From a virus (taxonomy: Duplodnaviria > Heunggongvirae > Uroviricota > Caudoviricetes), in IMG/VR virus record IMGVR_UViG_3300005326_000042, positions 1 to 64,000 of that record: a DNA stretch of 64,000 nt, one strand, 5' to 3'. The notes under the pieces are model-generated. The model saw nothing but the letters and a program-made list of their open reading frames with translations. It was not told where the DNA came from and did no database searches. Shown piece by piece: positions 10,949-61,643 of the stretch. Each line of letters opens with the position of its first letter. Position 1 is the first letter of the stretch. The position numbers were made by a program, and so were the translations under genes.

Positions 10949-11017
10949 GTTAATTCCTCTGACGCTCAGTTGCTTCGCAACGTCGCTTATCCTCCGCGAT
11001 CTGATGATCGCTGCGGT

Positions 11018-11323
11018 TCACCACAATCCCCAACTCCTCAGACCTTCCCATCCTTTGAAGTGTTCGCAAATTATTTCTCTAAGATCGACATCCTCAAGTC
11101 CCATTTCGAGAAGATCAACTAAATTTTCTTTCTGCTTCTCATCCAGAGTGTCCATAAGACTTGAGATAAGTTTAATTACCATATCTTTTCGAACTTCGGA
11201 ATAACAATTCCAAGAACAGTAGTGTTCTAGGTAATTATATCCATCGCTATAATATAAGTATTCATCAGAGACTTCATATTCTTTACCGCAGCGTTTGCAG
11301 GTTTTCTTTGTGTAGAAGGGCAT
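11018..11323 (-). CDS. zinc-finger hypothetical protein
   Basis: CKRCG...C..NC. Confidence 0.4.
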   Translation of the reverse strand: MPFYTKKTCKRCGKEYEVSDEYLYYSDGYNYLEHYCSWNCYSEVRKDMVIKLISSLMDTLDEKQKENLVDLLEMGLEDVDLREIICEHFKGWEGLRSWGLW

Positions 11324-11329
11324 GATTAA

Positions 11330-11581
11330 TCACCCTAAAATCTTTTTCAAATCCTTCAGATTATTTCCATCAAACAAATCATTTGTTGTATAAAATTTAT
11401 CATCTACTTGTAGGATCGGAGCAGATATAGTAAATACTCCATTTGTATACAACTCAGTCATTGCATCTGGAGTTGCCATATTCCATTCTTCATAAGACTC
11501 ACACAAAAGTCTTATTCTTTCTTTTAACATCTTACACTTCGGACAATTTTCTGTAGAAAAGATTCTAATCACGCAAAACAC
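11330..11581 (-). CDS. NrdH-like glutaredoxin/thioredoxin-fold redoxin
   Basis: CPKC redox motif after a beta strand (IRIFSTENCPKC); 83 aa; immediately downstream of nrdG-nrdD. Confidence 0.55.
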   Translation of the reverse strand: MFCVIRIFSTENCPKCKMLKERIRLLCESYEEWNMATPDAMTELYTNGVFTISAPILQVDDKFYTTNDLFDGNNLKDLKKILG

Positions 11582-12155
11582 CTTCTTGTTTTTTCCAAGT
11601 CAGATTACAATTTTCAACAAAATGTTCTATTCTTTTTAAACTATCAGAGTCTGGATAGTCTTTAAATATAGTTGTTCTAACTTCTAATTCGATTCCTGTA
11701 AATATACAGCAAATTATACTATCCATTACATCATGCCAAGATGTTTTAGATCCTGTAAGATTAAAGTAATTATCTTCACCCCAAGTTTTTAGATCTACAA
11801 AAACCGCATCAAGGTAGCCGCCAGAAATTAGGTCTTTTAGAGCAAGACTATTGTATCCTGAAGTCTCGATTCCTACCTTTAGACCCAAAGAATGGGAGTA
11901 GTGGGAGAGTTCTTGGATTACTAGGGGTTGAAGCATTGGTTCCCCGCCGCCGAGAATTACGGCTGAAATTAATCTTGAACTCTCCCTTATCATAGATTTT
12001 ACTTCTTCTAAAGATATATAGTTTTCACCAGATCGAAGGTCTTTGTTGTGACAAAACCAACATCGGTAAGGACAGGTTCTAAACCCGATTAAACTGGCTG
12101 CGTGTCTTGGGTAATCGGAAAGGGTTAGAGGGAGGAAGGAGGCAAAGTTAAATAT
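11565..12155 (-). CDS. nrdG: anaerobic ribonucleotide reductase activating protein (radical SAM)
   Basis: CPYRCWFC radical-SAM cluster motif lies upstream of the only in-frame ATG (11993); frame is open to 12182 with no canonical start codon; candidate ATA at 12153 follows AAGGAGGAG; 5' end uncertain. Confidence 0.55.
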   Translation of the reverse strand: MFNFASFLPLTLSDYPRHAASLIGFRTCPYRCWFCHNKDLRSGENYISLEEVKSMIRESSRLISAVILGGGEPMLQPLVIQELSHYSHSLGLKVGIETSGYNSLALKDLISGGYLDAVFVDLKTWGEDNYFNLTGSKTSWHDVMDSIICCIFTGIELEVRTTIFKDYPDSDSLKRIEHFVENCNLTWKKQEGVLRD

Positions 12156-14478
12156 CGTATTTTCTCCTCCTTCTTCTCTCCTCTAGTTTTGCCTCCGACC
12201 ATGCGCTCAGACCGGACATGTAGCCAGTAATTCTCCCGAATCCTTCTACATGTTGTGAATTACAGAACTCACATTTTTCTTTTATGCCTCTTCCGGTTTT
12301 ACCACAATCAAGGCATACTGTAAATTCCATGCCAAAATCGAAATACTCAACAGGTGTAGACCAAGCTATACGGAGAATTAGATCTAGTAGGGCTTTAGCC
12401 TCTGGTTTCTTTTCGCCAATCCAAATGTGAGTTATGTTTCCTCCATCTGTGGCTGGGAAGAAAACACCCTCTAATTTAAGACGCTCAGATAAAGATACAT
12501 CAGCAGATACATCAAGGTGACATCCATTTGAGTAATAAACTGGAAGATCTCTTGTGTTCTTCAAGTTTACTAAAGCCTTCTCGACATCTCCTTTAATTAC
12601 CATCGATGCTCTATCCCTATATCTCTTGTTAAGTAGATCAGATACCGCAAACCTCTGAGCTGTACTTTCAGCGGGTGTTCGAGCGAGAGCTAACTTAAGC
12701 CCCGATTCCTTTGAAAGTTGCCTTATATACTCTCTAAGATCAAGAATTAGTTTTATTCCAAATCTCCAAGCTTCGGTAGACTCATGAAGTTGTTTACCAC
12801 AGTGAGTTTGTACTAACTCATTTAAACCCACAAATCCGATCACATAAGATTGAAAATCTAGATCAACAAGTGGAGGAGCGCGTTTTGTAGGATCATTTGG
12901 GTCTATTGGAGTCTGCATCGCAAAAGGAAGCCCGCCGTGAGCAACAACGTCATCGATTCTCTGCCTCTTGAGTTTAAAGACTTCTACGGCCTTTCTACAG
13001 AGGAACTTAAGATACTTTAATAAAACTTCATTATTTCCTTTTGCAACATACGCGGCTCTTGGAAGATTTAGAGTTATAACCTGAGCAGATCCGAGGCTAA
13101 AATGTTCCCCATTTTCAAAGTTCATCTTTTTGTCATATTTAGGATCATTTTCTTTCTCAGATCCCATGCTGTAGCTGCAACATTGTCTACATAATTGTAA
13201 ATTGTCCCAATCTTTTTCTGAAGATAAATGACTCTCTATATAAGGTGATCCATGCGTTGCTGCAAGTTCGGCTGCAAGTTCTAGGAGTTCTTTGTAAGAT
13301 GGAGCAATCTTTATCTTATAAGGTTCACTTGGTTCATCTCCCTCATCCCAATCTGATTCATGGATTTCATAAAGAGGATTGTCCAACGGTTGTTTCGTCT
13401 CTAAATCAAAAAACTCTCTCATCAAAGTTAATTCATATTTGGGCATACTGAACCCACGACCAAATATGTCTCCCTTAATAAGGATCTCTGTTACAGCTTT
13501 AAAAGCAAGACGAACTTCTCGCTCAAATTCACCATATGTTCTCAAAGGAGCTTGGATACCGTTCCAGATCTTACCTTTATATACTGCTGGTTTATCTCGC
13601 CAATTCTTCGGTACTCCGCAAGTTAATTGAATTGAACTAAAGATAGTTTGATCTGAACGAGAAGTCATCATCTGACACATTTCCCAAATATACATCTGAC
13701 AGTTTTGGTAAATCTTTTTATAAGATAACCCTTCGAAATAAGGAGCTAAGAACACCAAGAAGTTCTGATATCCCATACCGCCAGAAAAACAACTCTGTTG
13801 AGATCCTAATGTTTTAGCAAGATGAAGAATAGCCACTTCTGGATTCTGAGCAGCCCTGGCAACGCTTACATAATTTCCTGTGCCATCAGGATAAAGGCCA
13901 TAGTAAAGAGGATATCTTGCATCAGAATCTTGACAGAAATTTCTCTGAAACATATAGTTAAGGTCGTGAAGGTGGATTGACCCTTTTCTGTGAAGATTAG
14001 CTATATTTTGCGGCATAGATAAAAGATTAAACTCCTTATTCATCTTATCCGCTTTATGTTGATGCGCTGCATTGGAACCGTTTGATTGTGTATTCGCATT
14101 CTCTTTAGCCTCAAATCCATTTCCAAGGTCCGTAGAATGAACATCGAAAACACTCATTCCCACTTTAACAGAACAGTTATACCATTCTATTTTACCTGTC
14201 TCCATCAGAATAGAGTTTACGATTTCTCGGACGAAAGCTCCGGTTGTTCTCTCTAAATTTAATTTTCTAATTCTTTTTTCTGCTTTAATGGCAATCTTGT
14301 TTGCCTCATCTCTTGTACAAGGCGGAACACCAAAAAACTTTGTTGCGAGAGTTGTATCCTTCATCAATCTATTTATAATAGCTTCTCGATTCCAATCAAC
14401 TGAGTGTCCATCAGACGTGAATACCTTCGGCAAAGAAACATTATCAGTAACCATAGTTAAACCTCTAGAATTAGGCAA
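12148..14478 (-). CDS. nrdD: anaerobic (class III) ribonucleoside-triphosphate reductase
   Basis: 776 aa; C-terminal Zn ribbon CLDCG...CEFC followed by glycine-radical motif RITGY; gene order nrdD-nrdG-nrdH-like. Confidence 0.75.
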   Translation of the reverse strand: MPNSRGLTMVTDNVSLPKVFTSDGHSVDWNREAIINRLMKDTTLATKFFGVPPCTRDEANKIAIKAEKRIRKLNLERTTGAFVREIVNSILMETGKIEWYNCSVKVGMSVFDVHSTDLGNGFEAKENANTQSNGSNAAHQHKADKMNKEFNLLSMPQNIANLHRKGSIHLHDLNYMFQRNFCQDSDARYPLYYGLYPDGTGNYVSVARAAQNPEVAILHLAKTLGSQQSCFSGGMGYQNFLVFLAPYFEGLSYKKIYQNCQMYIWEMCQMMTSRSDQTIFSSIQLTCGVPKNWRDKPAVYKGKIWNGIQAPLRTYGEFEREVRLAFKAVTEILIKGDIFGRGFSMPKYELTLMREFFDLETKQPLDNPLYEIHESDWDEGDEPSEPYKIKIAPSYKELLELAAELAATHGSPYIESHLSSEKDWDNLQLCRQCCSYSMGSEKENDPKYDKKMNFENGEHFSLGSAQVITLNLPRAAYVAKGNNEVLLKYLKFLCRKAVEVFKLKRQRIDDVVAHGGLPFAMQTPIDPNDPTKRAPPLVDLDFQSYVIGFVGLNELVQTHCGKQLHESTEAWRFGIKLILDLREYIRQLSKESGLKLALARTPAESTAQRFAVSDLLNKRYRDRASMVIKGDVEKALVNLKNTRDLPVYYSNGCHLDVSADVSLSERLKLEGVFFPATDGGNITHIWIGEKKPEAKALLDLILRIAWSTPVEYFDFGMEFTVCLDCGKTGRGIKEKCEFCNSQHVEGFGRITGYMSGLSAWSEAKLEERRRRRKYDI

Positions 14479-17649: not shown

Positions 17650-18972
17650 TTATTTCTCCTCTAATTTTCGCTTCTTTAGTTCCTTGTATTCTTCCTTAGT
17701 GTAATAAGATCTCCCTGAGTATATATAGTTTATGGATGTGTGGAAATTTTCTTCCCATCGTTGTCGGTCTCCATGCGTCGTTTTACTATGACACTTTTTA
17801 CAAAGTGGAACAAACATTACAATTTTATCATCACAACACGCATTTTTATCATATTCAACATGATGTACTGATAGTTCGCAGCCGTTCTCTTCTTTGCTTG
17901 TTCCACACATAAAACATTCGTTCTCAAAGAAATCTCTTACTCTCCGCCTCAAATCATTATTAAACTTAGGACAATATGGCTCAAAAGAGAGACCACCTTT
18001 CCAATTTGGGTTTTGTTCTCCTTTCTTTCCATACATTCCATTCTTTTCGCCCTTGTTAGATTCTGATATTTTAGCTTTAGTTTCCTCTGTATGACGTTTG
18101 CCAAAGAAAGTTGATTCTTCACCCCTTTTACCATAAAGGGGGTGCTCTTCACCTTTTCTCCTAAAAGCGGGGTCTTCCCTATTCTTTTGAGAAATAGACA
18201 TTTTCTTTTTAGTCTCGTCAGAAAACTTTTTCCCATAATTTGGAGATTTTTCACCACTTAAAACTTCCGAAAGTTTCTTTCTTGTTTCTTCTGGTAAATG
18301 TTTTCCAAACCAATGGTTTTTCTCACCTTTGTTCGCTTCAGAAATTTTTCTACGGGCTTCTGGAGAAGGGGAGTTACCTTTATTCTTCTCAGAAATTGTT
18401 TTCTTTGTTTCTTCTGTATGATGTTTTCCATACATACCGTTATTTTCTCCAGAATGGGCAATTGACATCTTTACTTTAGTTTCCTCACTCGCTTTCATTC
18501 CTCTATGGGCTTCCGCAATCTTCTCTCTATTTTCTGGATGACTCATTCTTTCTTTCGCTTTTTCAGAAAGTTTTTCTTTGGTTTCATCAGAAAGGTGTTT
18601 TCCAAAACGTGGATTTTCTTCTCCTTTTCTACCAAACATTGGATTATTTTCACCTTTATTAAGTTCTGCAAGTTTAGCTTTAGTTTCTTCCGTATGATGT
18701 TTCCCAGTCATTGGGCTTGGAACCCCATACATGGGATTATTTTCACCAGATAATTTCTGAGAAATGATTTCTTTTGTTTCTGGATGTTCTTGGTAATATT
18801 TTATTAAGGCTTCAGAAATCTTTCTTCCAATTTCTTTTGCGGGTTTTTTACCAAATAAGGGGTGATCCTTGCCTCTTCGTATCTTGTTTGGATTATCTTT
18901 GAAAAACTTCTTTTTAGATTCTGAAAGCTTTTTCTTAGATTCCTCACTCATCTTTTGTCCTTTTCTCATTCC
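17650..18972 (-). CDS. HNH homing endonuclease with multiple NUMOD3 DNA-binding repeats
   Basis: Repeated GKHHTEETK/GK.H.EE.K NUMOD3-like units; C-terminal HNH (HHVEYD...CKKCH); likely ATG at 18972 (track GTG at 18984). Confidence 0.65.
   Translation of the reverse strand, partial: GMRKGQKMSEESKKKLSESKKKFFKDNPNKIRRGKDHPLFGKKPAKEIGRKISEALIKYYQEHPETKEIISQKLSGENNPMYGVPSPMTGKHHTEETKAKLAELNKGENNPMFGRKGEENPRFGKHLSDETKEKLSEKAKERMSHPENREKIAEAHRGMKASEETKVKMSIAHSGENNGMYGKHHTEETKKTISEKNKGNSPSPEARRKISEANKGEKNHWFGKHLPEETRKKLSEVLSGEKSPNYGKKFSDETKKKMSISQKNREDPAFRRKGEEHPLYGKRGEESTFFGKRHTEETKAKISESNKGEKNGMYGKKGEQNPNWKGGLSFEPYCPKFNNDLRRRVRDFFENECFMCGTSKEENGCELSVHHVEYDKNACCDDKIVMFVPLCKKCHSKTTHGDRQRWEENFHTSINYIYSGRSYYTKEEYKELKKRKLEEK
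17990..18780 (-). repeat. intragenic tandem repeats encoding NUMOD3 units
   Basis: Periodic DNA repeats produce spurious ORFs in other frames (17949..18257, 18258..18461, 18505..18753). Confidence 0.5.
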
Positions 18973-19085
18973 TTCACCCTCCACGTTCCTTGGTCAAATC
19001 TGACCTTACATCGAGGGCAAGCTTTCGGATCGGCAACACGCGGAACCCATTTGTATAAACACTTAGGACATACTTTTTCTGTCAT
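18969..19085 (-). CDS. small zinc-ribbon protein, translationally coupled to HNH gene
   Basis: 38 aa; CPKC...CPRC; stop overlaps HNH ATG (ATGA); below track size cutoff. Confidence 0.4.
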
Positions 19086-41303: not shown

Positions 41304-42125
41304 ATGACAAATAAAGCTTTACTTGCGGGAATCAATGCCTATATGCAATCTCCGCTTAGAGGTTGCATCAACGATGTACTTGATGTAGAGAACTATTTAC
41401 TAGGAAAGAATTTCCAGTGTACCAAACTTCTCGACTCTTCCGCCACCAAACCCAATATTCTAAATGGACTTAACACACTTATAAACGGAAGCCACGCAGG
41501 AGATGTATTGGTGTGGTATTTTAGCGGCCACGGATCTTACATTTTAGATAATAATGGAGATGAAACAGACGATCAATATGATGAGTGCTTGATTTCTTAT
41601 GACTACTTCACAAACGGAAATTTCATTCGTGATGATGATTTAGCTGAAATATTTACAAGAATTCCAGAAGGAGTTTTAGTTGAGTGTATCCATGACTCCT
41701 GCTTTTCAGGAGATTCCACAAAACTATTTAATGATCTAAATTCAAATACCCGTTTTGTAGATATCGATACTAATTCTATAGATTTAAAATCTTCTGCTTC
41801 AAAATATATTCCTATCCAGCTTTCTAGACCTAAAAAGAAAGTTGTGAAAATTGGAAGGATAGGACATAAAGTCAGTAATATTACCATGAACCACATCTTA
41901 TCAAGCGCCTGTGGTGAAACTCAGACTTCAAGCGAGGTTCGGGTAAACGGTCAATATCGCGGAATTTTTACATACCTGCTTACAAGAAGACTCAGACTTT
42001 CTCCAACTATGAGCCGATCTGGAGTAATAAGTAATGTTCGAGCAAACCTTGCTGCACTAGGGTTGTCACAAATACCTATGTTAGAGTGTATCGATAGTGA
42101 AAAATTAGAGCCTTATTTCTCATAA
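41304..42125 (+). CDS. caspase-like cysteine peptidase (peptidase C14 / metacaspase family)
   Basis: Catalytic His in VLVWYFSGHGS and catalytic Cys in IHDSCFSGDS in caspase order (His before Cys); N-terminal KALLAGINAY; SD GAGGT. Confidence 0.65.
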   Translation: MTNKALLAGINAYMQSPLRGCINDVLDVENYLLGKNFQCTKLLDSSATKPNILNGLNTLINGSHAGDVLVWYFSGHGSYILDNNGDETDDQYDECLISYDYFTNGNFIRDDDLAEIFTRIPEGVLVECIHDSCFSGDSTKLFNDLNSNTRFVDIDTNSIDLKSSASKYIPIQLSRPKKKVVKIGRIGHKVSNITMNHILSSACGETQTSSEVRVNGQYRGIFTYLLTRRLRLSPTMSRSGVISNVRANLAALGLSQIPMLECIDSEKLEPYFS

Positions 42126-43759: not shown

Positions 43760-44224
43760 ATGACTTATTTTGGTTTATTGAAAGGAAAGACCGTCCTCGG
43801 AGTCGTAAAAGAATGGCTCATGGACGATGACGGTCATGGGCAGGTGGATGTGGTGTCCACAGCAGCGCCAGCCACCCTACCTTTGCCCACAGGCGCGGCT
43901 ACGGAATCGACTTTGGCGGCGATGAACGGGAAGCTCGGTGCTCTCAGCAGAACTCCCCGCTCGGGTCAGCAAACGGTAGCCGCAGCGGGAACAGAAGTCG
44001 CTCTAGGTGCATCCCAAGTCTATAGGGAAGTTACAGTGATTGCCAACAGCGACAACACCGGAAACATCTATATTGGTAACGACGGGACTGATCATGTATC
44101 AAGTACCACGGGCGGCAAGCTTCCAGCGGGCGGATTTGCCACTTTCCACAATGTAGATATCTCTAAGATATTTGTAGATGTTGCGGTCTCCGGCGAAGGT
44201 GTCTCCTGGTTTGGTGAGATTTGA
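43760..44224 (+). CDS. fibre-associated structural protein, paralog A
   Basis: GQQTVAAAGTEVALG...VTVIANSDNTGNIYIGNDGTD...GEGVSWFGEI; paralogous to 44473..44865. Confidence 0.5.
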   Translation: MTYFGLLKGKTVLGVVKEWLMDDDGHGQVDVVSTAAPATLPLPTGAATESTLAAMNGKLGALSRTPRSGQQTVAAAGTEVALGASQVYREVTVIANSDNTGNIYIGNDGTDHVSSTTGGKLPAGGFATFHNVDISKIFVDVAVSGEGVSWFGEI

Positions 44225-44472
44225 TGTTCGGCCAGCATCACTGCTCAAAATGTGGCCTAAAATATAACAATGCGTCAGTAGACGGGCGAGATTACACTTA
44301 CACCTGCAAGAACTGCTGCCAAGTTGAAACCTTCCACATGGATGGTACTAGCACCACATTCGACTGCCCGATATGCGCGAAGACTGCATTGAATGCAAAT
44401 TTCGCGCCCAATAACGTGAACAGGAAGATGGATTTCTCGGATAAATATAACTCAATGTATCGGGTGATTTGA
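44221..44472 (+). CDS. zinc-finger small protein between fibre paralogs
   Basis: CSKCG...CKNCC...CPICAKT. Confidence 0.4.
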   Translation: MMFGQHHCSKCGLKYNNASVDGRDYTYTCKNCCQVETFHMDGTSTTFDCPICAKTALNANFAPNNVNRKMDFSDKYNSMYRVI

Positions 44473-44865
44473 ATGGCAGATAGCAATTTGAAGATTCTGA
44501 ATGCGGATGAAGATCCGAAATGGCAGAAGGTGAAGGGGGCGCAAACGGAGGGAGATCCCGGATCGCCGTACGTGTGCCTGGATGGGAGCAATACCCCGAA
44601 GAGTGGACAGAAAGCAGTGGCATCAGCAGGTACTGCGGAAGCCCTGGGAACGACCCAAGTATTCAAGCGGGTTACAGTGGTTGCCAATGCCGATAATACA
44701 GGAGATGTGTATGTTGGCAATGACGGTGCTGACGATGTCAGCAGCATCACGGGAATAATCTTACCCCCGGGCGGCTGGTTCGACTGGTTCTTTGTGGATA
44801 TCGCTGATCTCTATGTAGATGCTGAAGTATCTACTGAAGGCGTGTCTTATGGGGGAGAAATATGA
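44473..44865 (+). CDS. fibre-associated structural protein, paralog B
   Basis: GQKAVASAGTAEALG...VTVVANADNTGDVYVGNDGAD...TEGVSYGGEI. Confidence 0.5.
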   Translation: MADSNLKILNADEDPKWQKVKGAQTEGDPGSPYVCLDGSNTPKSGQKAVASAGTAEALGTTQVFKRVTVVANADNTGDVYVGNDGADDVSSITGIILPPGGWFDWFFVDIADLYVDAEVSTEGVSYGGEI

Positions 44866-47039
44866 GCGCAGGACAATTTATTCAGGGAGTGCTACGCGGT
44901 GCATATCGCATATATAATGTGCACGATTTTGGCGCGGTGGGGGATGGCGTCCACGATGACACAGCAGCATTCCAAGCATGCATAACAGCCGCCGCTGGAA
45001 AGGGGCCTGCCATCGTTCCCAAGCCACTTGTTCGATATCTAGTATCGTCTCAGGCCCCGATGGCGTATGGATCATGGAATTATTGCATCGCTGTTCCCAG
45101 CCACACGCAGATAATTGGTCTCGATAGGCCCGAAATTCAGCTCAATGCCGCAGATACAGATGTTTGCCGAACTATATTTACAAATTCGGATTGGGTAAAC
45201 GGGAATACTGATATCGAGATCGTGGGACTGTCTATAGATGGAAATTACAGGAACAGACAGGCGGGAACAGCTAATAATCTGGTACTTATTCACATGGGAG
45301 TATCAGACGCTGGCGCTACCGTTGGATGCACTGACATTCGAATAGAGTCAAATAAGTTGTACGATGGAATTCTCGGTATCGGACTATATAACTACATCAA
45401 AGGTGCTGCCAAAAACAGCAACTGCAAGGTCAATTCGAATGTCATCGACTCGATGCAAAATTTCTGCATAGAATTCGACTCCACCGATAACTCTGAGATG
45501 AGTGGCAACCAATCATCGAACAGTTTGAATTACGATGTCGGCGGGGCGTATAATCTAATATTTTGGTCAAACAACAACACCGTTGATGCAAACCAATTCA
45601 AGTCTTCGAATATCAACAACACGGGCATCTGGATCAAGCACGGCAGTTCGGGAAACATCATCACTAACAACAACATCATTGCTCCGATGGGGTGCATCTT
45701 CTTCGAGACCGAGCCGGTTGAAACCGCTTCGATCACTGAAAACAACACTGTATCGGAAAATTACTTCGAGGAAACCGGCGCTTCGTCCAAGTTCTTGATC
45801 TACAATGCAGCTGGATCGACATTCAGAAACAATACAATCCGTGACAACAAATTCGTAGGTTGGCCTCTGTGGATCAGGGCAACGCAAACCGCTGCGAGAG
45901 ATTGCACAATCGATGGTCTTTATATTCGTAACAATGAATTTATTGTGCCCGACAATGTTAAGAACATGTGCATAGGATCAGCCGCCACAGAGGGCGGCGC
46001 CGGCACGTCCTGGGACAATATATTCGTCGAGGGGAACACATTCAGGAGGGGGTATATTGCTCTAGTTGGAAAAGTCAATCGCCTCTTCATCCGACGCAAC
46101 AAATTCATAGCAGTGGCCGGAACTCAGATCAATATCGATACTACAACATCGATTACAGAAGCTTACATTGATGATAATACAGCGATTGGCGGAAATAACT
46201 TCGTCTACACAGATGGAACGCTCCTGGGGCTGAAAACTCTCAGGCGCAATACGATTATTGCAAGCGGTGGGACGGCGATAACAGTCGGATCTGCAAATGC
46301 AATAGACATTTCTGACAATGATATAGATGTACCGACGACAGGATACGCATTCAATATATTAGCCGGATCACATACATTTAAGCGGAATAAAATTCACGAT
46401 GGGCAATACGGAATTACCGCCCCAGTGGGCACCGTTCAAACAATAAAGGATTGTGAGTTTTCGGGGTTGACTGGAGCCACACCTCGCCTAAAAGGCGCGG
46501 CAACGTATATTACCGATGTTTCGACAGAGCATTTCCAAGGTGTATTAGCGGCATCGGCTACTGCGATTAGATCAAATGAAGATCTGAGCGCGGCAACACC
46601 CCTCACCTTTACACTGGATGCTCAACCCGATGTTCCGAGGCGGCTTGTATGGGCCTTTGATGCGCATGCTCAGATAACAGCATTCTCCATTACTTTTACT
46701 GGAGTGAATGCGAAGGACGTTGCCGTTACACAAACGATCACAGAAGCTTCTGGCTGGTCAGGTGTCACGAATGAAGCATTTGCCACTATCACATCTATCA
46801 TCATGACCGCCAGAACAGGAACTGGTGCAGGTGATACGATTGATATCGGTGTCAATGATGTGATTGGCTTGGCAACCTCGCTTGATGTCGCGGCGGATGT
46901 GTTTAAGGTGAAAAAGAACAGTGCGAATTATCCCGCAGCAAGTTATACGGTGGAAGATGTTTATGACACGATCGACTTGAGCACGGGCGGGGCGATAACA
47001 GGCGGGGATGATTTCACGATTTGGTACAAGGCACTATAG
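44862..47039 (+). CDS. tailspike/receptor-binding protein with pectate-lyase-like right-handed beta-helix
   Basis: YNVHDFGAVGDGVHDDTAAFQACI N-terminal motif of the pectate-lyase superfamily; many N..I/N.F beta-helix rungs; 725 aa. Confidence 0.6.
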   Translation: MSAGQFIQGVLRGAYRIYNVHDFGAVGDGVHDDTAAFQACITAAAGKGPAIVPKPLVRYLVSSQAPMAYGSWNYCIAVPSHTQIIGLDRPEIQLNAADTDVCRTIFTNSDWVNGNTDIEIVGLSIDGNYRNRQAGTANNLVLIHMGVSDAGATVGCTDIRIESNKLYDGILGIGLYNYIKGAAKNSNCKVNSNVIDSMQNFCIEFDSTDNSEMSGNQSSNSLNYDVGGAYNLIFWSNNNTVDANQFKSSNINNTGIWIKHGSSGNIITNNNIIAPMGCIFFETEPVETASITENNTVSENYFEETGASSKFLIYNAAGSTFRNNTIRDNKFVGWPLWIRATQTAARDCTIDGLYIRNNEFIVPDNVKNMCIGSAATEGGAGTSWDNIFVEGNTFRRGYIALVGKVNRLFIRRNKFIAVAGTQINIDTTTSITEAYIDDNTAIGGNNFVYTDGTLLGLKTLRRNTIIASGGTAITVGSANAIDISDNDIDVPTTGYAFNILAGSHTFKRNKIHDGQYGITAPVGTVQTIKDCEFSGLTGATPRLKGAATYITDVSTEHFQGVLAASATAIRSNEDLSAATPLTFTLDAQPDVPRRLVWAFDAHAQITAFSITFTGVNAKDVAVTQTITEASGWSGVTNEAFATITSIIMTARTGTGAGDTIDIGVNDVIGLATSLDVAADVFKVKKNSANYPAASYTVEDVYDTIDLSTGGAITGGDDFTIWYKAL

Positions 47040-47080
47040 GGCAAAAGGAGAACCCCAGTTCTCCTAAGTCCCTCATTTCA

Positions 47081-47485
47081 TCATTTTTGGCTGAGAACTT
47101 CCGTATTAGTCCTATGTGATATCATTAGGCTCTTCAGTGCAGCGTTCTGCGACTCTATGATATCCAAGGCCCGCTTTGACCAATCTGCTACTGATTCTCC
47201 TGGCTTCCCCGCACATTCTTTGAGACGGTCGTAATCCGCTGCATATACCCAAATCATTTTCTTTTCATCCGACTTCTTTTTCGCGGATAAAAACATGCAC
47301 TTATCGAAGGATACTTGCCCTGGATACAATTTAAAATCCCTTAAATTGATCTCCTCTATATCCGGATAGAAGGTGCAATTGATAAAACGCACTTCGGCGC
47401 TCTCGTTTATAGCATCCGCGATTATTGTTTCGCACTCCGATAGGTTCAGAACCTCATCAAATCGTCTTATTATTTTTGGCTCCAT
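47081..47485 (-). CDS. hypothetical protein
   Basis: Track ORF. Confidence 0.4.
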   Translation of the reverse strand: MEPKIIRRFDEVLNLSECETIIADAINESAEVRFINCTFYPDIEEINLRDFKLYPGQVSFDKCMFLSAKKKSDEKKMIWVYAADYDRLKECAGKPGESVADWSKRALDIIESQNAALKSLMISHRTNTEVLSQK

Positions 47486-47665
47486 GTAGAAAACTTATAA
47501 TCTTTATAATATTTATAACCATCGTACAACATAAGTCCAAAAGTACATGACTATTCAGCAAAGTCGATCATTCCAATCATTATAGGAATACATAGATCCT
47601 AGAGCGCGCCCCTATGCGGCAGATAGCGAAAATAGGAGTATAAGAAAAGGAGAATAAAAAATAGA

Positions 47666-47935
47666 CTAAAGTCCTAGATGCCGAAGAGTCGAGGATTTCC
47701 TTCGCTTCGGTCTCTCCTTCTGAATCTGATACGCAGGCCGCTCGACCTCTTTCGGCACAGCGTCCACGATGTCGGACTTGCCACAGTTCGGGCACGGTCT
47801 GCCCTCTGGTTCAACCTCGTGGATCTTGTCGGGCTTTAGGGTGGGCATTCTAATGCCTCTGTGGAGGTGGGTCCACTGGAGGAAGTGATGCTCGCAGTCG
47901 AGGCAGCGTTTCTCCTGGACGCCGACGATCTTCAT
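47666..47935 (-). CDS. zinc-ribbon protein (GC-rich operon)
   Basis: Start at internal ATG (MKIVGV) overlapping upstream stop (ATGA); CLDCEHH...CPNCG. Confidence 0.4.
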   Translation of the reverse strand: MKIVGVQEKRCLDCEHHFLQWTHLHRGIRMPTLKPDKIHEVEPEGRPCPNCGKSDIVDAVPKEVERPAYQIQKERPKRRKSSTLRHLGL

Positions 47936-48075
47936 GGCTTCCTCTTGCGAAGATCTATCTCCGCTTGAAGGGCCTTGCGACATACGGCGGCCACGTTGAT
48001 CTCCTCCAGATCCTCTAGGGATTTTTGCATCTCTTCGGAGATCTGGAAGGTTTTTGGGATGGGGTATTTCGCCAT
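47932..48075 (-). CDS. ribbon-helix-helix-like small protein (GC-rich operon)
   Basis: Internal ATG (MAKYPIPKTFQISEEMQKSLEDLEE...) coupled to neighbours. Confidence 0.35.
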   Translation of the reverse strand: MAKYPIPKTFQISEEMQKSLEDLEEINVAAVCRKALQAEIDLRKRKP

Positions 48076-55258: not shown

Positions 55259-55627
55259 CTACTTAAAACTTTGCTCTCCCGAAGAAGTTTTATACGGAAC
55301 AATCTTTAATCCAGTGACATACATATTCAATCTGAGAACTTTTACGTCATTTTTAACAGAAGTGATTACTTCTCCAGAAAATCCTACAAATATTGGTTCT
55401 TCATTAGGTCCAGTTTTCATATAATGAAGATTTTCTATGAACTTCGAGTCCTCAGATGTTACAATCCTTGCGGAAATAGTAATATCCGTATAAAGCCCAT
55501 CTTCTCCATGAATGTAGTAGATAGCTTTTGCCAAACTTTTGTCTATTAAATCCACAATAACGGATTCTCTTTGAGTTTTTAGCTCTTCCATCTGGGTTTC
55601 ATTATTTTTGAGGTCAGAAATTTTCAT
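55259..55627 (-). CDS. hypothetical protein
   Basis: Track ORF. Confidence 0.4.
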   Translation of the reverse strand: MKISDLKNNETQMEELKTQRESVIVDLIDKSLAKAIYYIHGEDGLYTDITISARIVTSEDSKFIENLHYMKTGPNEEPIFVGFSGEVITSVKNDVKVLRLNMYVTGLKIVPYKTSSGEQSFK

Positions 55628-55786
55628 TTATAATCTCCTGAGCGTAATATCTTTTAAAATTATCTCTTCTTTCGCGAAGGAATCTACGAATTTTCCAAGT
55701 CAAACAATGTCGGCACGCGGAGAATTTGTTTAATCTCGCGTGGCCTGAGTTGCGGAGGGTGTGAGACATGATAAGATTTTCCTACT

Positions 55787-55963
55787 TCAACTCTTATCAA
55801 ACATTTCCTCCATTGGAATTTCTACAGGGGCCCAATCTTTCTGTCCTTCAAGTTTATAATATCCTACAAAAGACAACTCCTGTAATTCATTTTCTTTAAA
55901 ATGTGCTTTAATTCCTATATCTTCACTGAAGATGATGGTAACGTATCCGTACATAGATATCAT
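55787..55963 (-). CDS. hypothetical protein
   Basis: Track ORF trimmed to internal ATG so it does not translate the tRNA. Confidence 0.35.
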   Translation of the reverse strand: MISMYGYVTIIFSEDIGIKAHFKENELQELSFVGYYKLEGQKDWAPVEIPMEEMFDKS

Positions 55964-56076
55964 GGGCAAGGTAGGATTTGAACCCACATCGCGAGTTTTG
56001 GAACACACGACATCGGTCGTGTTAGAGCAAAACTAAAGTTTTGCGACTCGCTACTTATCCAATTAGTGACATGCCC
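55963..56076 (-). tRNA. putative intron-containing tRNA (anticodon CCA/Trp or CAA/Leu depending on intron placement)
   Basis: 5' GGGCATG pairs with 3' CTTGCCC + discriminator A; T-arm GTGGG-TTCAAAT-CCTAC; anticodon stem CGAGT/ACTCG; about 42-nt insert with two perfect 7-bp hairpins; 114 nt; no encoded CCA. Confidence 0.5.
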
Positions 56077-56402: not shown

Positions 56403-57509
56403 TTAATCCTTCTTGGTATTTATACTTTCCGCTTCCTCGCGACTTGTCACACAATAGGACATCACATTAGACCCGCCAGATGTCCATCTTCGCCTTCTGG
56501 GAATAGTAGATGGAGACGTAGTAAACGGCTGAACCGCGTATGCACTTACCTCATAAGGTTGCGACCAAGGATCTGTATCATCCTTCTCGGACCCAAAATC
56601 CTCTGGATTTGTTATAGGGACGACCTTTTCAAGAATCTCTCTTGTTGTTCCATCAACCTTTTCGGGAACCAACTTCTTAGTCTCTACCTTCTCATCACTG
56701 GGATACTCAATAAAATCGCGACAACATTTTCTATCACATGGGCCAAACCTTATATTCCTAAATCCAGGTTCCCAGATATTCGCAAGAGATTCTTTGAGCA
56801 GATTTCCCCAAGTATATAGACCAGTTGAATTGTAAGACCTCTCCGACAGACAGGTAATTACATCTCCATTATAGAGAATAGAACAAGATCTTATTCCAGC
56901 AGAACACGTGTGTTCAGACTGTAGATTGTCCGCGAGAACATAACTTACATTCTTCAGGCTTCGTATCTTGTCTCTAAGATACTTAATTCCATCTGCCAAA
57001 AGTTGATATTCTGATCCCATAGTAAGCTGAATCTGCCAGAGCTTAAAGTTCTTCGCGATTTCCGCCAGTTTATCAAATTCCCAGATATTGTGAGACCCGA
57101 AGTTTGTAACTATGGTTATATTATCGCAATATTCTGTTGTCGTAACAACGTGGTCTTCTTTATAGTCTGAAGGGAAATTAACCGATAATCCAATGCAGTA
57201 AACTTTATCCCAAGGAATAAATTTATCAAATATTCCACCGTTTGATATAATTTTAACCTTACATCCCGAATTATCTAGTATCTCTATTACTTGAGATAAC
57301 AACTCATCTGATAGAGTCGAAGGTTCTCCTCCCGTAAGAGTCACTTCATTCACTTTATATTCAACGATTCGTTCTGCGATTTTTAGAACTTGGTCGTCTG
57401 ACAAAGGTTCATTTTTAGTTATATCCTTAGAGCCGCAGTACTTACAGTTTTTGTTACACTTGGGTGTAATTTCCCAAAGTATTTCTTCTAGTTTTAAAAT
57501 AGGTTGCAT
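56403..57509 (-). CDS. radical SAM enzyme with C-terminal SPASM/twitch-like Cys cluster
   Basis: CNKNCKYCG (CxxxCxxC) at residues 18-26; later CSAGIRSC...C...C.RKCC cluster; 368 aa with low-complexity tail. Confidence 0.6.
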   Translation of the reverse strand: MQPILKLEEILWEITPKCNKNCKYCGSKDITKNEPLSDDQVLKIAERIVEYKVNEVTLTGGEPSTLSDELLSQVIEILDNSGCKVKIISNGGIFDKFIPWDKVYCIGLSVNFPSDYKEDHVVTTTEYCDNITIVTNFGSHNIWEFDKLAEIAKNFKLWQIQLTMGSEYQLLADGIKYLRDKIRSLKNVSYVLADNLQSEHTCSAGIRSCSILYNGDVITCLSERSYNSTGLYTWGNLLKESLANIWEPGFRNIRFGPCDRKCCRDFIEYPSDEKVETKKLVPEKVDGTTREILEKVVPITNPEDFGSEKDDTDPWSQPYEVSAYAVQPFTTSPSTIPRRRRWTSGGSNVMSYCVTSREEAESINTKKD

Positions 57510-57737
57510 TTCTTAATCACCTGAAAAGAGACTTATTTAGAAAAGATATGTTAAAGTATTTAAAGATATTGGTTCTTTCAATCTCTCCTAATTTTCTCCC
57601 AGCAAACTCTGCCATACCTACCGCCGAAAATCTTAGTTATTTTCCTTCTGCAACGGGCACATCGCCTTGGAGCAGAAGATTCTTTGGGTTTTTCGGTGGA
57701 TTGCATATATGGAGATTATCTGGCTTAGGATAAATAG

Positions 57738-57959
57738 TTAATCCTCGGAATACAAACTTCCTTCTTCGATATGTAGATCATTTAGTGGAGCACTACAGAC
57801 ATTTCCTTCTGTAATGTGCTCATACATTTCTAGTTCCATGATATCTTCATCTTCAAATCCTTGCGCGAATGCTTTATCTATTGCTTCTTCTTTACTGTCG
57901 GCTTCGATTTCTAGGCTTACGTATCCTGCTATTGGGATGTCAACTACGTATTTGGGCAT
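57738..57959 (-). CDS. small acidic protein (candidate rSAM substrate)
   Basis: 73 aa, pI acidic, single Cys, directly upstream of rSAM gene. Confidence 0.35.
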   Translation of the reverse strand: MPKYVVDIPIAGYVSLEIEADSKEEAIDKAFAQGFEDEDIMELEMYEHITEGNVCSAPLNDLHIEEGSLYSED

Positions 57960-59183: not shown

Positions 59184-61643
59184 ATGGCAGATTCTTCATT
59201 ATTTCAGAAATACTTAGAAATGGGCTTTGGGCTGATTCCCGTTCACGAACCGGGATCTGTTGACCCTAAAACTTTGGAGTCAATAGAGAAGATTCCTTAT
59301 ATTAAGTGGGGAAATTATAAAGATAAAAAACCGGAAGAATCTGAAATGCTCTCTTGGTTTGCGACCTACGCGCGAGCAGACTTCGCAGTACTCACCGGCT
59401 TTGACAATCTGGTCCTTTGTGATATTGATGACCCCAACATCTATGACCGCTATCTGGCGGGTACTTTTAAAAACATGGTGGCCCGTACGCCCAGTGGAGG
59501 GATCGGACTCTTTGTAAAAAGTTCTGTTGTACCCAAATCTTTTGCAGGATTATCGGGGCTTCCCGTAGATATAAGAGGGTTAAATGGTTATTCAGTTCTT
59601 CCTTCCCAAGACCTTACTCCTGAAGAAATAGCCCGCGAGGAACAGGAAGAGTTGGAAGGTAAAAAAGGGAAAGACAAAGGGAACCCTTGGATTCGTCGCT
59701 GGTTATCTTTTGAATCTCCCGAAGAGGTAACAGATATTGTAGCCACCCTCAAGAAACTATTACCAGAGATTAAAAAACCAAAAGAAAACATTCCAGTAAA
59801 CGGTATCGATTGGGTTCAAAATCACAACACCTGGAATATCGTTCGGCGCGGCCACGGATATATACAGGTTAGATGCCCCATAGAGGGTCATGTTGATAAT
59901 AATGCATCTTTCACGATTTACGAAGATGGTTTTATATGCTACGGATGTGGCGCAAAAGGAAATATAATAAAGCTCCTTTCTTTGGCTACCGGCCAATCCG
60001 AAGAACAGGTCTTGCAACAATATCCAGGAGCCGCAAGAGTCGGAACGACATTTAAGGATAAGCTCATCGAATTGGTAAGTGAAAAGACAAATTTGTTGAA
60101 AGATTATAATGAAAATACTTTTTATTACGTCAAAGAGTTAGATACTGAGTTTGGAATTTCACAAAATATATTCCCCATAAACTCAGATATAGCTCAATAT
60201 TGGATCAATAGAACGGCAGAAAAGAAGTTGGGTAAGAAAGTTCCAGATATAGATCTCAAATATGTGACAAAATGGATGAACGGAGAAGCAAAAGCGAAGG
60301 CGGCCAGGGTAAATATTTGGAGGCGTATAGGAGGAGATAGCAGTAATATATACTACGATATGGGAGATAATACATACACAAAGATTACTGCAAATTCTCT
60401 TGAGATTCTTCCTGAATCTGATATAGTATTTGTAAGAGAGGCTATCCAAGATGCCCAAGCCCCTCCTTCAAGTTATAAAAAAGAAGATATATTAAAAATA
60501 TTTGATTATATTAATATCGAAGGAGAAGAGAAGAAGCTTTTAGTTCTAACTTGGATTTTAACATGCTTTTTGCCAAATGCTCAGTATCCAATTTTACTTC
60601 TCTGTGGTACTAGAGGATCTGGAAAAACCGAGGCTGCTAAGAAAATAAAAAGGATTATAGATCCTGTATCGGGCGGTAAATTTGGACCAGAAACATTAGT
60701 GTATGCTCCGAATGATTTAGATAAACTGACTCATCAGTTATCTCACACAGCTTTGGCGGTTTTGGATAACATAAGTCATATTAACTTAAACACTGGAAAT
60801 TTGCTATGCCAAGCAGTCACGTCGGGGCACACTCAGACGAGGCTTTTATACACTACAAATGAATCTTTGTACATTTCAATTCGTACAAGAATCATTTTGA
60901 CAAGTATTAACAGAGAAATTTTCAATGTTGAGTCTTTAGATGCGTCAGAAAGAACAGTTTGTATAGAATTGGATCGTCCAGATGGGAAGTATATAGATAT
61001 AGATTTTTTAGACGAAACTTTCGAACTCGAAAAATCCAAATTTTTAGGATCTGCCTTTGCTCTTCTAAAAGGATATCTTCGCGATGGTAAGCCTAAAACA
61101 GGTGAAAGATCTGACTTTAGAATGACCGTGTTTGCTTCAATGGGAAAGTATTTAGCAAAAGAGTTAAATTTTAAATGTGATTTTAACAAAGTGTATGCAA
61201 GGAATCAAGGAATACTCTCACAAGGTTCGATAGACGCGGAACCACTTTCCCAATTCATTTTCTATTTCAGTCGCAAGTATGGGTCTTCCGACTTCAGTGG
61301 TAATAAAGGATGGGGGATCAGCAAGAATCGCATTTTTGACAAATGCTTTACCTCTTGGATCGAAAAGAGACATGGAGATTTTGGAAATAAAGAACTTCCA
61401 AGAAACGCAAACATCTTGTTTTCAAAGCTTCGTAAAATGAAGCCAGACCTTAAAAAACTATATGGAATCGAACTCAAGTTTAGCTCTCATAGAAATACAG
61501 ATTGGGTAATGATTTCCAAACCGACAGATGGGGCGCTAGAAGAAGAAGAAATTTCCGAGGCAATTATCGTAGGAGATTTTAACTCAGAGGAAGAAGTTGA
61601 TAAAGCTCTGGGTCAGACGGATTTAGAAGATGAATGGAGTTAA
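59184..61643 (+). CDS. primase-helicase 2 (Prim-Pol N-terminal domain + zinc finger + SF3/D5-like NTPase)
   Basis: ADFAVLTGFDNLVLCDIDD prim-pol motif; CPIEGH...CYGCG zinc finger; Walker A CGTRGSGKT; 819 aa. Confidence 0.65.
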   Translation: MADSSLFQKYLEMGFGLIPVHEPGSVDPKTLESIEKIPYIKWGNYKDKKPEESEMLSWFATYARADFAVLTGFDNLVLCDIDDPNIYDRYLAGTFKNMVARTPSGGIGLFVKSSVVPKSFAGLSGLPVDIRGLNGYSVLPSQDLTPEEIAREEQEELEGKKGKDKGNPWIRRWLSFESPEEVTDIVATLKKLLPEIKKPKENIPVNGIDWVQNHNTWNIVRRGHGYIQVRCPIEGHVDNNASFTIYEDGFICYGCGAKGNIIKLLSLATGQSEEQVLQQYPGAARVGTTFKDKLIELVSEKTNLLKDYNENTFYYVKELDTEFGISQNIFPINSDIAQYWINRTAEKKLGKKVPDIDLKYVTKWMNGEAKAKAARVNIWRRIGGDSSNIYYDMGDNTYTKITANSLEILPESDIVFVREAIQDAQAPPSSYKKEDILKIFDYINIEGEEKKLLVLTWILTCFLPNAQYPILLLCGTRGSGKTEAAKKIKRIIDPVSGGKFGPETLVYAPNDLDKLTHQLSHTALAVLDNISHINLNTGNLLCQAVTSGHTQTRLLYTTNESLYISIRTRIILTSINREIFNVESLDASERTVCIELDRPDGKYIDIDFLDETFELEKSKFLGSAFALLKGYLRDGKPKTGERSDFRMTVFASMGKYLAKELNFKCDFNKVYARNQGILSQGSIDAEPLSQFIFYFSRKYGSSDFSGNKGWGISKNRIFDKCFTSWIEKRHGDFGNKELPRNANILFSKLRKMKPDLKKLYGIELKFSSHRNTDWVMISKPTDGALEEEEISEAIIVGDFNSEEEVDKALGQTDLEDEWS

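Follow-up and report, generated by a model that had tools for sequence, protein, structure and literature searches.

The window, that is the whole stretch of 64,000 nucleotides that was analysed, carries on its minus strand a gene for a 368-aa radical SAM enzyme, a small acidic open reading frame upstream of it and a tRNA-like gene downstream. The features of the locus are as follows.

56403 to 57509, minus strand: gene of the 368-aa radical SAM / twitch-domain enzyme (open reading frame; Pfam Radical_SAM and SPASM above the gathering cutoffs)
57435 to 57458, minus strand: CX3CX2C motif, CNKNCKYC, residues 18-25, ligand of the radical SAM [4Fe-4S] cluster (translation; C18, C22 and C25 invariant in alignment A1)
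56721 to 56906, minus strand: twitch (partial SPASM) domain of the auxiliary cluster, residues 202-263, C202-x12-G215-x4-C220 ... C262-C263 (Pfam SPASM, invariant Cys, profile match to the twitch domain of BtrN)
56406 to 56699, minus strand: C-terminal tail, residues 271-368, with a short beta-hairpin predicted at 277-296 and, after it, a low-complexity stretch that is predicted to be disordered and has two Tyr motifs (pLDDT, A1)
57738 to 57959, minus strand: 73-aa acidic peptide with one Cys (list of open reading frames)
57578 to 57706: 42-aa open reading frame between the 73-aa frame and the enzyme gene (list of open reading frames)
55963 to 56076, minus strand: tRNA-like gene (Rfam RF00005, 30.9 bits)

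An earlier note on this DNA had described a tRNA with an intron downstream of the enzyme gene, and the tRNA-like gene agrees with this: it lies above the Rfam cutoff of 29 bits and has 49 nt in place of the 7-nt anticodon loop, an insertion of about 42 nt; ARAGORN makes no call. A run of 142-aa open reading frames in the window was considered as a set of paralogues and turned out to be a coincidence. Elsewhere the window encodes a caspase-like protease (41304 to 42125).

The 368-aa protein belongs to the radical SAM superfamily. It matches Pfam Radical_SAM (PF04055) with E 3.4e-15 and 57 bits (cutoff 29.5), and the Cys motif CNKNCKYC, which the earlier note had pointed out near the N-terminus, is there at residues 18-25. 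In alignment A1, which holds 32 homologues, its three Cys are invariant and G60-G61-E62-P63 (GGEP) is conserved. Residues 202-259 match Pfam SPASM (PF13186) with E 4.6e-7 and 30.5 bits (cutoff 21.5), which places the protein in the SPASM/twitch subgroup. Among the 32 homologues this second region keeps C202, G215 and C220, which make up the CX12GX4C hallmark, as well as C263 without exception, C209 and C262 are kept in most, and the family profile matches the twitch domain of BtrN in the region of residues 202-263. The second Cys cluster proposed earlier is thus real and conserved. It is twitch-like, with one cluster, and not a full two-cluster SPASM domain, because there is one auxiliary motif only (three invariant and two mostly conserved auxiliary Cys) and CX2CX5CX3C is missing from the 368-aa sequence. 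The enzyme is a radical SAM enzyme with one auxiliary twitch-type cluster.

The best NCBIfam alignment of the auxiliary domain is to the peptide maturase WgkB. The fold is nearest to peptide- and protein-modifying SPASM/twitch enzymes, with an equally good score for viperin. The AF2 model has a mean pLDDT of 79.9; the core is confident to about residue 296 and the values are below 50 from about residue 318. No RiPP recognition element (RRE) is present, as the proteins of the family begin 8-10 residues before the first strand of the core (A1). The tail (271-368) aligns poorly among the A1 homologues apart from the Tyr motif.

None of the curated subfamily models for splicease, viperin, MoaA, QueE and NrdG is reached by the 368-aa enzyme. 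The viperin model NF038283 gives 43.8 bits against a cutoff of 180, over residues 10-110 only, and the match to PADLOC pVip is confined to the N-terminal ~100 residues. QueE (TIGR03963) gives 44.6 bits (cutoff 260.1) and MoaA 41 bits (cutoff 325), both within the N-terminal SAM core. The earlier note had excluded viperin, and the exclusion extends to QueE, MoaA and NrdG. These values bear on the reading that the enzyme modifies a nucleotide or a DNA base, in the manner of viperin, MoaA or QueE or in the course of phage DNA hypermodification, with an incidental tail. The auxiliary cluster of MoaA has an open Fe site, and with 3-4 Cys ligands only the auxiliary cluster here could also leave one open. 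Relatives of the gene are found in modules of nucleotide metabolism, with thymidylate-synthase homologues, an SNF2 helicase and an RNA ligase close by, and in one locus (L011) NrdD follows the family gene after 4 bp. Viperin and MoaA differ from the family in that they act on nucleotides and have no repeat-bearing tail. We regard a nucleotide or DNA substrate as improbable: the matches to the nucleotide enzymes stay in the SAM core far under their cutoffs, and the reading leaves unexplained both a family-wide motif with an invariant Tyr and its co-occurrence with the enzyme on a second protein, which are described below.

A word-indexed search gave 82 homologues of the enzyme, and at E<=1e-30 there are 267 cluster representatives. 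The family is found almost only in viral contigs. No member was found among GenBank phages, and a scan of 185,579 species genomes with alignment A5, which is smaller than A1, gave a single match, in one Nanoarchaeota MAG. No neighbouring gene family, small genes included, is conserved across the loci of the family.

Members of the family typically carry, in their disordered tail, 1-5 copies per protein of the motif P-x-[VIT]-h-h-Y-[G/A]-V-x-x-P. The tail is C-terminal, and in a few members (P0002, P0006, P0027, P0041) an N-terminal extension carries the motif instead. Prevalence was counted over 186 representatives of the family: at least one copy is present in 177 of them (~95%), and the other nine are mostly fragments or have near-variants. 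Counted by region, the tails have 169 copies in 7342 residues, the cores 18 in 22731 and the neighbouring open reading frames 47 in 76946; the enrichment is about 38-fold over background. The commonest spacing between copies is 10 residues. The Tyr is never replaced. At all 127 sites of the form [VIT]..X[GA]V, where X was allowed to be F, W, H, Y, L or M, it is Y. The position after the Tyr is Gly in 58-75% of the copies in the family, and Ala, Ser or Cys takes its place in ~20-25%, both copies of the 368-aa protein included; the next position is Val in 66-84%. The two copies in the window are:

56523 to 56555, minus strand: Tyr motif copy 1, YEVSAYAVQPF (Y324, nearly invariant in A1; first in PSSM rank of 1295)
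56439 to 56471, minus strand: Tyr motif copy 2, SNVMSYCVTSR (Y352, nearly invariant in A1; second in PSSM rank, tied, of 1295)

Comparison of clade tails shows that copy 2 is the homologue of GNVMSYGVTDW, the terminal motif in the nearest clade; it has Cys in place of the Gly. The PSSM, built on 339 copies taken from other members of the family, was used to score all 1295 Tyr-centred 11-mers in the window; among these Tyr sites the other proteins of the window have no convincing copy. A search for free-standing motif-repeat proteins with a synthetic concatemer as query returned 16 candidates, none of them significant. The motif is enriched in, and restricted to, the family.

The earlier note had proposed that the enzyme and the acidic 73-aa peptide with one Cys encoded upstream are a RiPP-like pair. 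The peptide is there, on the same strand and 229 nt from the enzyme gene, so that the two are probably co-transcribed. That the enzyme matures this peptide, as in a classical two-gene RiPP system, we find very hard to believe. In 28 related loci the 6-8 kb around the enzyme gene contain no homologue of the peptide. The peptide matches phrog_9348, with homologues in phages of Alicyclobacillus, Vibrio and Shewanella, bacterial phages which lack the enzyme family, and the PSSM scan finds no family motif in it. As a precursor the peptide is rejected: it does not co-occur with the enzyme, it belongs to an independent phage small-protein family, and it takes no part in the reaction of the enzyme. 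The note would have dropped its proposal for an enzyme of a nucleotide-modifying family such as QueE next to a peptide that is not conserved; the peptide is indeed not conserved, while the enzyme is no QueE-type nucleotide enzyme. An adjacent acidic peptide which resembles a RiPP precursor and is an unrelated phage protein is a mis-annotation that can be corrected here. It should be added that if, as we argue below, the motif on the tail is probably the substrate of the enzyme, it follows that the neighbouring peptide is not its partner.

Another partner to consider is NrdD, which is encoded in the window. The enzyme might be a non-canonical activating enzyme of NrdD with a tail that mimics the glycyl-radical loop. 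The glycyl-radical loop of PFL is V-S-G-Y-A-V, which V-x-x-Y-A-V resembles, and the loop ranks in the top 3.6% with the family PSSM. This rank should be seen beside those of the C-terminus of MftA (top 4.8%) and of the PlpA3 splice tag (top ~1% of the Tyr sites, below every true copy); these likenesses to known targets are weak and none of the ranks is decisive. In L011, where the family gene immediately precedes NrdD, there is no NrdG within 3 kb downstream. The Tyr of the family motif, however, is not preceded by Gly, and the window has a canonical NrdG directly after NrdD:

11565 to 12182, minus strand: canonical NrdG (TIGR02495, 132 bits against a cutoff of 131.15, that is at the cutoff; six-frame scan; no ATG, GTG or TTG before the cluster motif)

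The same model gives 28.4 bits for the 368-aa enzyme. Another locus, L032, has NrdG and NrdD without the family enzyme, and of 22 viral loci just 1 has NrdD in the neighbourhood of the family gene. Queries for co-occurrence with NrdD across viral contigs gave no match with a single protein and, with a two-sequence alignment of poor patterns, the contig of L011 and one unrelated phage. For the window the enzyme is rejected as an NrdD activase, since canonical NrdG is present, and we give the idea almost no credence.

In one clade the motif is found on a second viral protein. This neighbour has ~250 aa and a beta-sandwich fold, and the motif lies in a disordered loop (pLDDT 30-47). The copies on the tail and on the ~250-aa protein of this clade, in cis and in trans respectively, share a clade-specific suffix, Y-G/A-V-x-D/N/K-W. 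The enzyme is encoded 0.1-1.4 kb upstream in 8 of the 8 loci that have a motif-bearing ~250-aa protein and enough upstream sequence. It is absent from all 4 loci in which the homologue of the ~250-aa protein is without the motif, two of which have kept the synteny. The motif on the ~250-aa protein therefore co-occurs with the enzyme, in a correlation of 8 versus 0 which is not phylogenetically independent because the genomes are related. The protein amounts to a natural experiment in which the motif was gained and lost together with the enzyme.

The co-occurrence is compatible with two roles of the motif, that of a substrate and that of a docking or assembly element. In the second case it would be a short linear motif contributing a beta-strand to a partner, or else an element of autoinhibition or oligomerisation, and the true substrate would be another one, either a protein of the host or some small molecule. 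Like docking motifs, the motif lies in disordered, proline-flanked regions, the second motif protein is linked to the enzyme by gene proximity only, and AF2, with a pLDDT below 50 for the tail, predicts no placement of the motif in the active site. A docking element does not explain why the Tyr is so strict, with neither Phe nor Trp in its place, nor why there are up to five copies at a spacing of 10 residues, as in RiPP cores that bear repeats. Nor does it account for the lack of an RRE or leader system in an enzyme whose fold group modifies peptides. The loss of the motif from the second protein exactly where the enzyme is absent fits both roles. We consider docking unlikely, but it is the alternative to be taken most seriously, and we take the motif on the tail to be probably a substrate of the enzyme that carries it.

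Several known systems come close to the family. Like its members, the tyramine spliceases (PlpX, PcpX, RhaX, RcsX/RasX), which make spliceotides, belong to the radical SAM enzymes and have a C-terminal Fe-S domain. They act on M/L-Y-G sites within tags of 10-11 residues, e.g. AVAAMYGVVFP (PMC10533398, PMC11414181); the sites have a hydrophobic residue before the Tyr and Gly after it (MYG, LYG), and the elements h-Y-G-V...P are common to this tag and the family motif. Spliceases can recognise their sites without a leader, and they can act on proteins (PMC11414181, PMC10533398, PMC11626197). The spliceases differ in having a full SPASM domain where the family has one auxiliary cluster, and in being encoded in bacterial gene clusters and not in viruses; the family lacks a separate precursor, Y protein or leader. 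In sequence the family does not come near the spliceases: the splicease model TIGR04103 (IPR026482) gives 36.6 bits for the 368-aa enzyme against a cutoff of 725, over residues 10-70 of the N-terminal core only, and the best value among 32 members is E 9e-15. Measured against the X-Y-G site of the spliceases, the copies of the 368-aa protein are A-Y-A and S-Y-C, and Gly follows the Tyr in the 58-75% of family copies given above.

The triceptide synthases (3-CyFE) are radical SAM enzymes which cross-link an aromatic residue to the C-beta two positions on. They act on aromatic-X-X motifs, including the YDR of ChlB, and HaaB, which acts on HAA, accepts a small, non-basic third residue (PMC11499958). 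The Y-[G/A]-V of the family, with its invariant Tyr, fits aromatic-X-X. The family motif is conserved from -5 to +5, whereas the triceptide definition needs no such flanks. Triceptide synthases use separate precursors, and ChlB was crystallised with the leader region of its substrate according to the title of the structure entry; in the family there is neither a conserved small neighbour gene nor a domain N-terminal to the core. In a profile comparison the similarity of the family to ChlB is weak (E 3e-4).

With respect to architecture the borosins follow the same logic. In OphMA and its relatives the modifying enzyme and the core peptide are on one polypeptide, and the enzyme modifies its own C-terminal tail. 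A candidate core motif is likewise on the catalytic polypeptide in 177 of the 186 representatives. The borosins are SAM-dependent N-methyltransferases from fungi and bacteria, with a fold and a chemistry unrelated to those of the family, and in the literature searched we found no description of a radical SAM counterpart. The anaerobic sulfatase-maturating enzyme (anSME) differs in having two auxiliary clusters and in targeting Cys or Ser in C/S-x-P/A-x-R of a separate protein.

We propose the following model, which may equally well turn out right or wrong: the virus-restricted enzyme acts on a Tyr motif that it carries on its own chain and that in some viruses is found on a second viral protein as well. 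The substrate would be the short, beta-strand-like motif centred on the invariant Tyr, held on the flexible tail at 30-60 residues from the catalytic domain and, in some relatives, also in the disordered loop of the protein encoded just downstream. The tether would do the work that in classical RiPP pathways falls to the leader peptide and RRE. A tail, belonging to the same or to a neighbouring enzyme molecule, would enter the active site, and the 5'-deoxyadenosyl radical would then initiate a modification at or beside the Tyr. Candidate chemistries are excision of tyramine, a cross-link from Tyr to a C-beta across Y-x-V (a three-residue cyclophane), or some other reaction; the first two have precedents. 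We slightly favour, over a strict Y-G, a chemistry that depends on a Tyr and a Val separated by one small residue, because the copies of the 368-aa protein are Y-A-V and Y-C-V. A further point against the tail as substrate is that an enzyme that modifies itself would be stoichiometric, which is unusual. The self-modification in cis or in trans, the chemistry, and any biological role such as host take-over or protease inhibition are what we infer from the motif and its distribution.

A wider form of the model, which we hold more tentatively, is that the family is a self-contained unit used by viruses of archaea and bacteria, consisting of the enzyme with its fused, repeated Tyr-motif substrate and sometimes a second protein. 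The tails could be turned into alpha-ketoamide warheads or cyclophane staples, which might for example block host proteases during infection; such a unit would be the radical SAM counterpart of the borosins and a virus-restricted RiPP-like chemistry.

The family offers at least 186 diverse sequences with a testable prediction of an 11-residue substrate. If the tail is the substrate, this would be a compact, leader-independent, single-gene system for radical SAM peptide modification, which could find use as a tag in protein engineering, as the spliceases already do, and it would mean that viruses have a radical chemistry of their own for post-translational modification.

The viral enzyme family is represented in the window by a radical SAM protein of 368 aa, and the gene lies among these features:

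57738..57959, (-), ORF of 73 aa, acidic, upstream of the enzyme gene
57578..57706, (-), ORF of 42 aa, upstream of the enzyme gene
56403..57509, (-), radical SAM ORF of 368 aa, CNKNCKYC being residues 18-25
55963..56076, (-), tRNA-like gene of 114 nt (Rfam 30.9 bits, cutoff 29)

The assignment to the radical SAM/SPASM-type enzymes made in the earlier note agrees with Pfam, where Radical_SAM (E 3.4e-15) and SPASM (E 4.6e-7, residues 202-259) are both above the gathering score. Across 32 aligned members the three cluster cysteines, G60-G61 and P63 are invariant and E62 is nearly so; G60-G61-E62-P63 is the GGEP SAM-binding motif. In the auxiliary region C202, G215 and C220 (a CX12GX4C motif) and C263 are invariant, and C209 and C262 are found in most members. 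The second Cys cluster of the earlier note is thus conserved in its CX12GX4C motif and C263, but it is not a full SPASM domain, as there is no CX2CX5CX3C motif; the enzyme should therefore bind one auxiliary cluster, and judged from its sequence the auxiliary domain is of the twitch type, a partial SPASM. Only 8-10 residues precede the first core strand, which leaves the enzyme without a RiPP recognition element.

None of the curated NCBIfam models reaches its cutoff with the 368-aa enzyme. The best matches (TIGR04133, WgkB, QueE, viperin, MoaA, HxsC and the splicease model TIGR04103) have 36-51 bits against cutoffs of 180-725 and cover only the N-terminal SAM core, except for WgkB, whose model aligns to the auxiliary domain. 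A comparison of the family enzyme with known radical SAM enzymes gave 19.9 for PqqE, 19.7 for ChlB, 19.6 for viperin, 18.6 for SkfB, 18.4 for SuiB, 18.1 for anSME, 17.4 for MoaA and 12.5 for the PFL-activating enzyme. The similarity to MoaA and viperin and the nucleotide-metabolism neighbourhood of the relatives suggest, as a less likely reading, a nucleotide- or DNA-modifying role, but such a role leaves a tyrosine motif in the tail of the enzyme, the Tyr motif, without explanation.

A search of 5.8 billion proteins returned the 368-aa protein itself and about 80 relatives (30-53% identity), nearly all of metagenomic origin, and among 1.84 billion cluster representatives, searched with a profile, there were 267 matches at E<=1e-30, the best 150 all being below 1e-79. 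In IMG/VR 22 distinct viral contigs have a family member, contigs of 145-372 kb among them; GenBank phages have none, the sole match being 25% identical. Only one carrier was found in 185,579 species-representative genomes, a Nanoarchaeota MAG (the same organism as for the homologous protein P0011), and it is concluded from these counts that the family is essentially viral. In this MAG, H43-bin069 (loci L001 and L037), the sole cellular genome found with a family gene, several small unannotated ORFs in a row and an 808-aa protein come after the gene, and the region is placed between glycosyltransferase/methyltransferase genes and sugar-epimerase genes. Either the integration of a virus or the wrong binning of a viral contig could account for the locus.

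Every family member has a variable low-complexity tail beyond the auxiliary domain, in which the Tyr motif recurs. The consensus of 174 copies is P(-5) x [V/I/T](-3) h h Y(0) [G/A](+1) V(+2) x x P(+5), and the commonest spacing between copies is 10 residues. One to five copies are present in 177 of 186 family representatives, and the remaining nine are mostly fragments or have near-variants, e.g. VFVYACP and VMMYACF. The tails contain 169 copies in 7342 residues, compared to 18 in 22731 for the catalytic parts and 47 in 76946 for neighbouring ORFs, and the enrichment in tails is roughly 38-fold. In an unbiased count of tail sites [VIT]..X[GA]V, where X may be F, W, H, Y, L or M, X was Tyr in 127 of 127. 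A few members have the motif in an N-terminal extension instead, likewise 30-45 residues off the core, so its position is modular.

The two copies of the window protein are EVSAYAVQP (Y324) and NVMSYCVTS (Y352). When a PSSM built from 339 motif copies of other members was used to score all 1295 11-mers centred on Tyr in the window's six frames, these two sites ranked first and second (the second tied). The only non-family site equalling the weaker tail motif is an 'NPMYGV' element, judged to be a chance resemblance, in a 444-aa protein (17650-18984, (-)) that has six repeats of NUMOD3, a DNA-binding motif of the homing-endonuclease type. In the AF2 model of the 368-aa protein the tail stays under pLDDT 50, its two short strands coinciding with the motifs, and it is thus predicted to be disordered and without confident docking. 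As the model does not dock the tail, a less likely alternative is that the motif serves for docking or autoinhibition and that the enzyme has another true substrate.

The motif is also found outside the enzyme. In the closest clade to the window protein, where L007, L009, L014 and L017 are among the loci, a gene for a protein of about 250 aa is located 0.1-1.4 kb downstream of the enzyme gene, and this protein has one copy, e.g. PPRVYAYAVSDWD. Approximately 12 of 19 aligned homologues have the motif, and the flanking domains are conserved in the rest too.

Homologues of the ~250-aa protein and presence of the family enzyme upstream
With motif: L007, L009, L014, L017, L031, L033, L038, L039; enzyme upstream in 8 of 8
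Without motif: L032, L034, L035, L036; enzyme upstream in 0 of 4

L040 is motif-bearing too but too short to judge and is kept outside this count. The synteny is intact in L032 and L034, where a thymidylate-synthase homologue, or a second radical SAM gene, is followed by the 250-aa gene. The 8:0 split, which comes from related genomes and not from independent events, does tie the motif to the family enzyme. Furthermore, the copies on the enzyme tails (in cis) and on the second protein (in trans) have a common suffix in this clade, Y-G/A-V-x-[D/N/K]-W. No homologue of the ~250-aa protein was found in the window.

The ~250-aa protein (L007 7653-8405; homologues P0083-P0108) is a viral beta-sandwich with a 70-residue disordered loop, and the loop has the motif only in loci also encoding the enzyme. 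One clade also has, 1-2 kb upstream of the family enzyme gene, the gene for a second, unrelated protein of about 337 aa:

L007 4008-5021
L034 936-1961
L038 1565-2578
L039 527-1537

It has a SPASM-type C-terminus and a first cluster motif C-x7-C-x2-C (CHGINGKPCSHC), not CX3CX2C, and matches no NCBIfam model; L034 has kept it and is missing the family enzyme.

The earlier note had proposed the enzyme and the small acidic peptide encoded upstream of it as a candidate RiPP-like or protein-modifying pair. The 73-aa ORF is present, but tblastn gave no match to it in any of 28 loci with enzyme relatives (6-8 kb on each side; absent in 28 of 28), and all-against-all ORF clustering of these loci shows no gene family that goes with the enzyme outside close relatives. 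The peptide itself has a match in phrog_9348 (E 5e-14) and homologues in Alicyclobacillus, Vibrio and Shewanella phages, all without the family enzyme. The two-gene pair is contradicted by these results.

The fold group, the lack of a RiPP recognition element and of a conserved precursor gene, the tethered motif with its invariant Tyr and the presence of this motif in a disordered loop of the co-inherited second protein suggest, as the most economical reading, that the active site binds and modifies the Tyr motif. Tethering by a disordered linker of 30-60 residues would stand in for a leader peptide. Modification both in cis and in trans is given an even chance. The observation of the motif is solid and testable; the function of the enzyme is what we infer. 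Fusion of enzyme and substrate is known for the borosin N-methyltransferases. Full-text literature searches gave no account of a radical SAM enzyme fused to a candidate substrate or of this viral family, the 2022 Chem splicease survey being outside the coverage.

There is precedent for two chemistries. Spliceases remove a tyramine unit at X-Y-G (native sites MYG and LYG) in tags of 10-11 residues such as PIRPLYGLPI and AVAAMYGVVFP; they are leader-independent, even in proteins, and their products are protease-inhibiting alpha-ketoamides (PMC11414181, PMC10533398, PMC11626197). Triceptide synthases join an aromatic residue to the C-beta of the residue two positions on, ChlB acting on YDR and HaaB on HAA (PMC11499958). 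On paper the Tyr motif fits both patterns. Unlike splicease sites, however, a fifth to a quarter of the copies are without Gly at +1, as are both window copies (Y324, Y352); the PlpA3 tag ranks no higher than the best ~1% of Tyr sites when scored by the family PSSM, and the enzyme is not a member of TIGR04103. Modification is therefore claimed without specifying the chemistry.

That the enzyme might be an NrdD activase was taken seriously, since in L011 a family gene is located 4 bp upstream of an intein-bearing NrdD. This is at variance with L032, which has NrdG and NrdD without the family enzyme, and with the window, where NrdG comes directly after NrdD:

12148..14478, (-), NrdD, anaerobic ribonucleotide reductase (Pfam E 1.5e-119)
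11565..12182, (-), stop-free frame of NrdG (TIGR02495, 132 bits)

The NrdG frame has no ATG, GTG or TTG ahead of the CPYRCWFC cluster motif, so that ORF finders give only a 142-aa fragment without the cluster; the gene may begin with an unusual start codon, or its start may lie within the last part of nrdD. In L011 (IMGVR_UViG_3300028907_000003, 6001-11658) two intein-like insertions bring NrdD to a total of 1553 aa. Upstream are another radical SAM gene, which is MoaA-like, and a DNA polymerase that likewise has an intein-like insertion; no NrdG was found within 3 kb downstream.

An intron-containing tRNA just downstream of the enzyme gene, as read in the earlier note, is consistent with the Rfam match at 55963..56076 (-), which has 49 nt where an anticodon loop of 7 nt is expected, i.e. 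an insertion of ~42 nt in the anticodon arm; ARAGORN called no tRNA at this position. Two hairpins form when the insertion is folded (MFE -38.4 kcal/mol, z -4.1). A mature loop of UUCCAAA would mean a CCA (Trp) anticodon and an intron away from the canonical position; an intron at that position would make the anticodon CAA, with G33. The short intron suggests an archaeal host for the window virus. A weak match to sR46, an archaeal C/D-box sRNA, just downstream (55582-55638, (-); 19.4 bits versus a gathering score of 50) is probably due to chance.

Judged by its gene content, the window appears to come from a large virus with some archaeal character. It encodes a SNF2 helicase, an ATP-dependent DNA ligase, RNA ligase-like proteins, a thymidylate-synthase homologue, an SPFH/Band-7 protein, a D5-type primase-helicase that includes the large-subunit domain of a eukaryotic/archaeal primase, and a prim-pol protein (59184..61643). 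Two other genes of the window are:

44862..47039, right-handed beta-helix/pectate-lyase-like protein, 725 aa
41304-42125, (+), caspase-family protease (Peptidase_C14, E 8.9e-20)

L032 and L033, close relatives of the enzyme clade, have a bacterial-type PHP-PolIII-alpha polymerase instead, and the hosts of the family may therefore span both domains. Near 30 kb and again near 36 kb of the window, coding strand and GC skew both switch. The 725-aa protein is inside a stretch (44001-48000) with a G+C of 0.47-0.48 versus ~0.37 elsewhere, and it may be a module for receptor binding or depolymerisation that has another origin. The viral caspase-family protease could be relevant if the modified tails are protease inhibitors or need processing.
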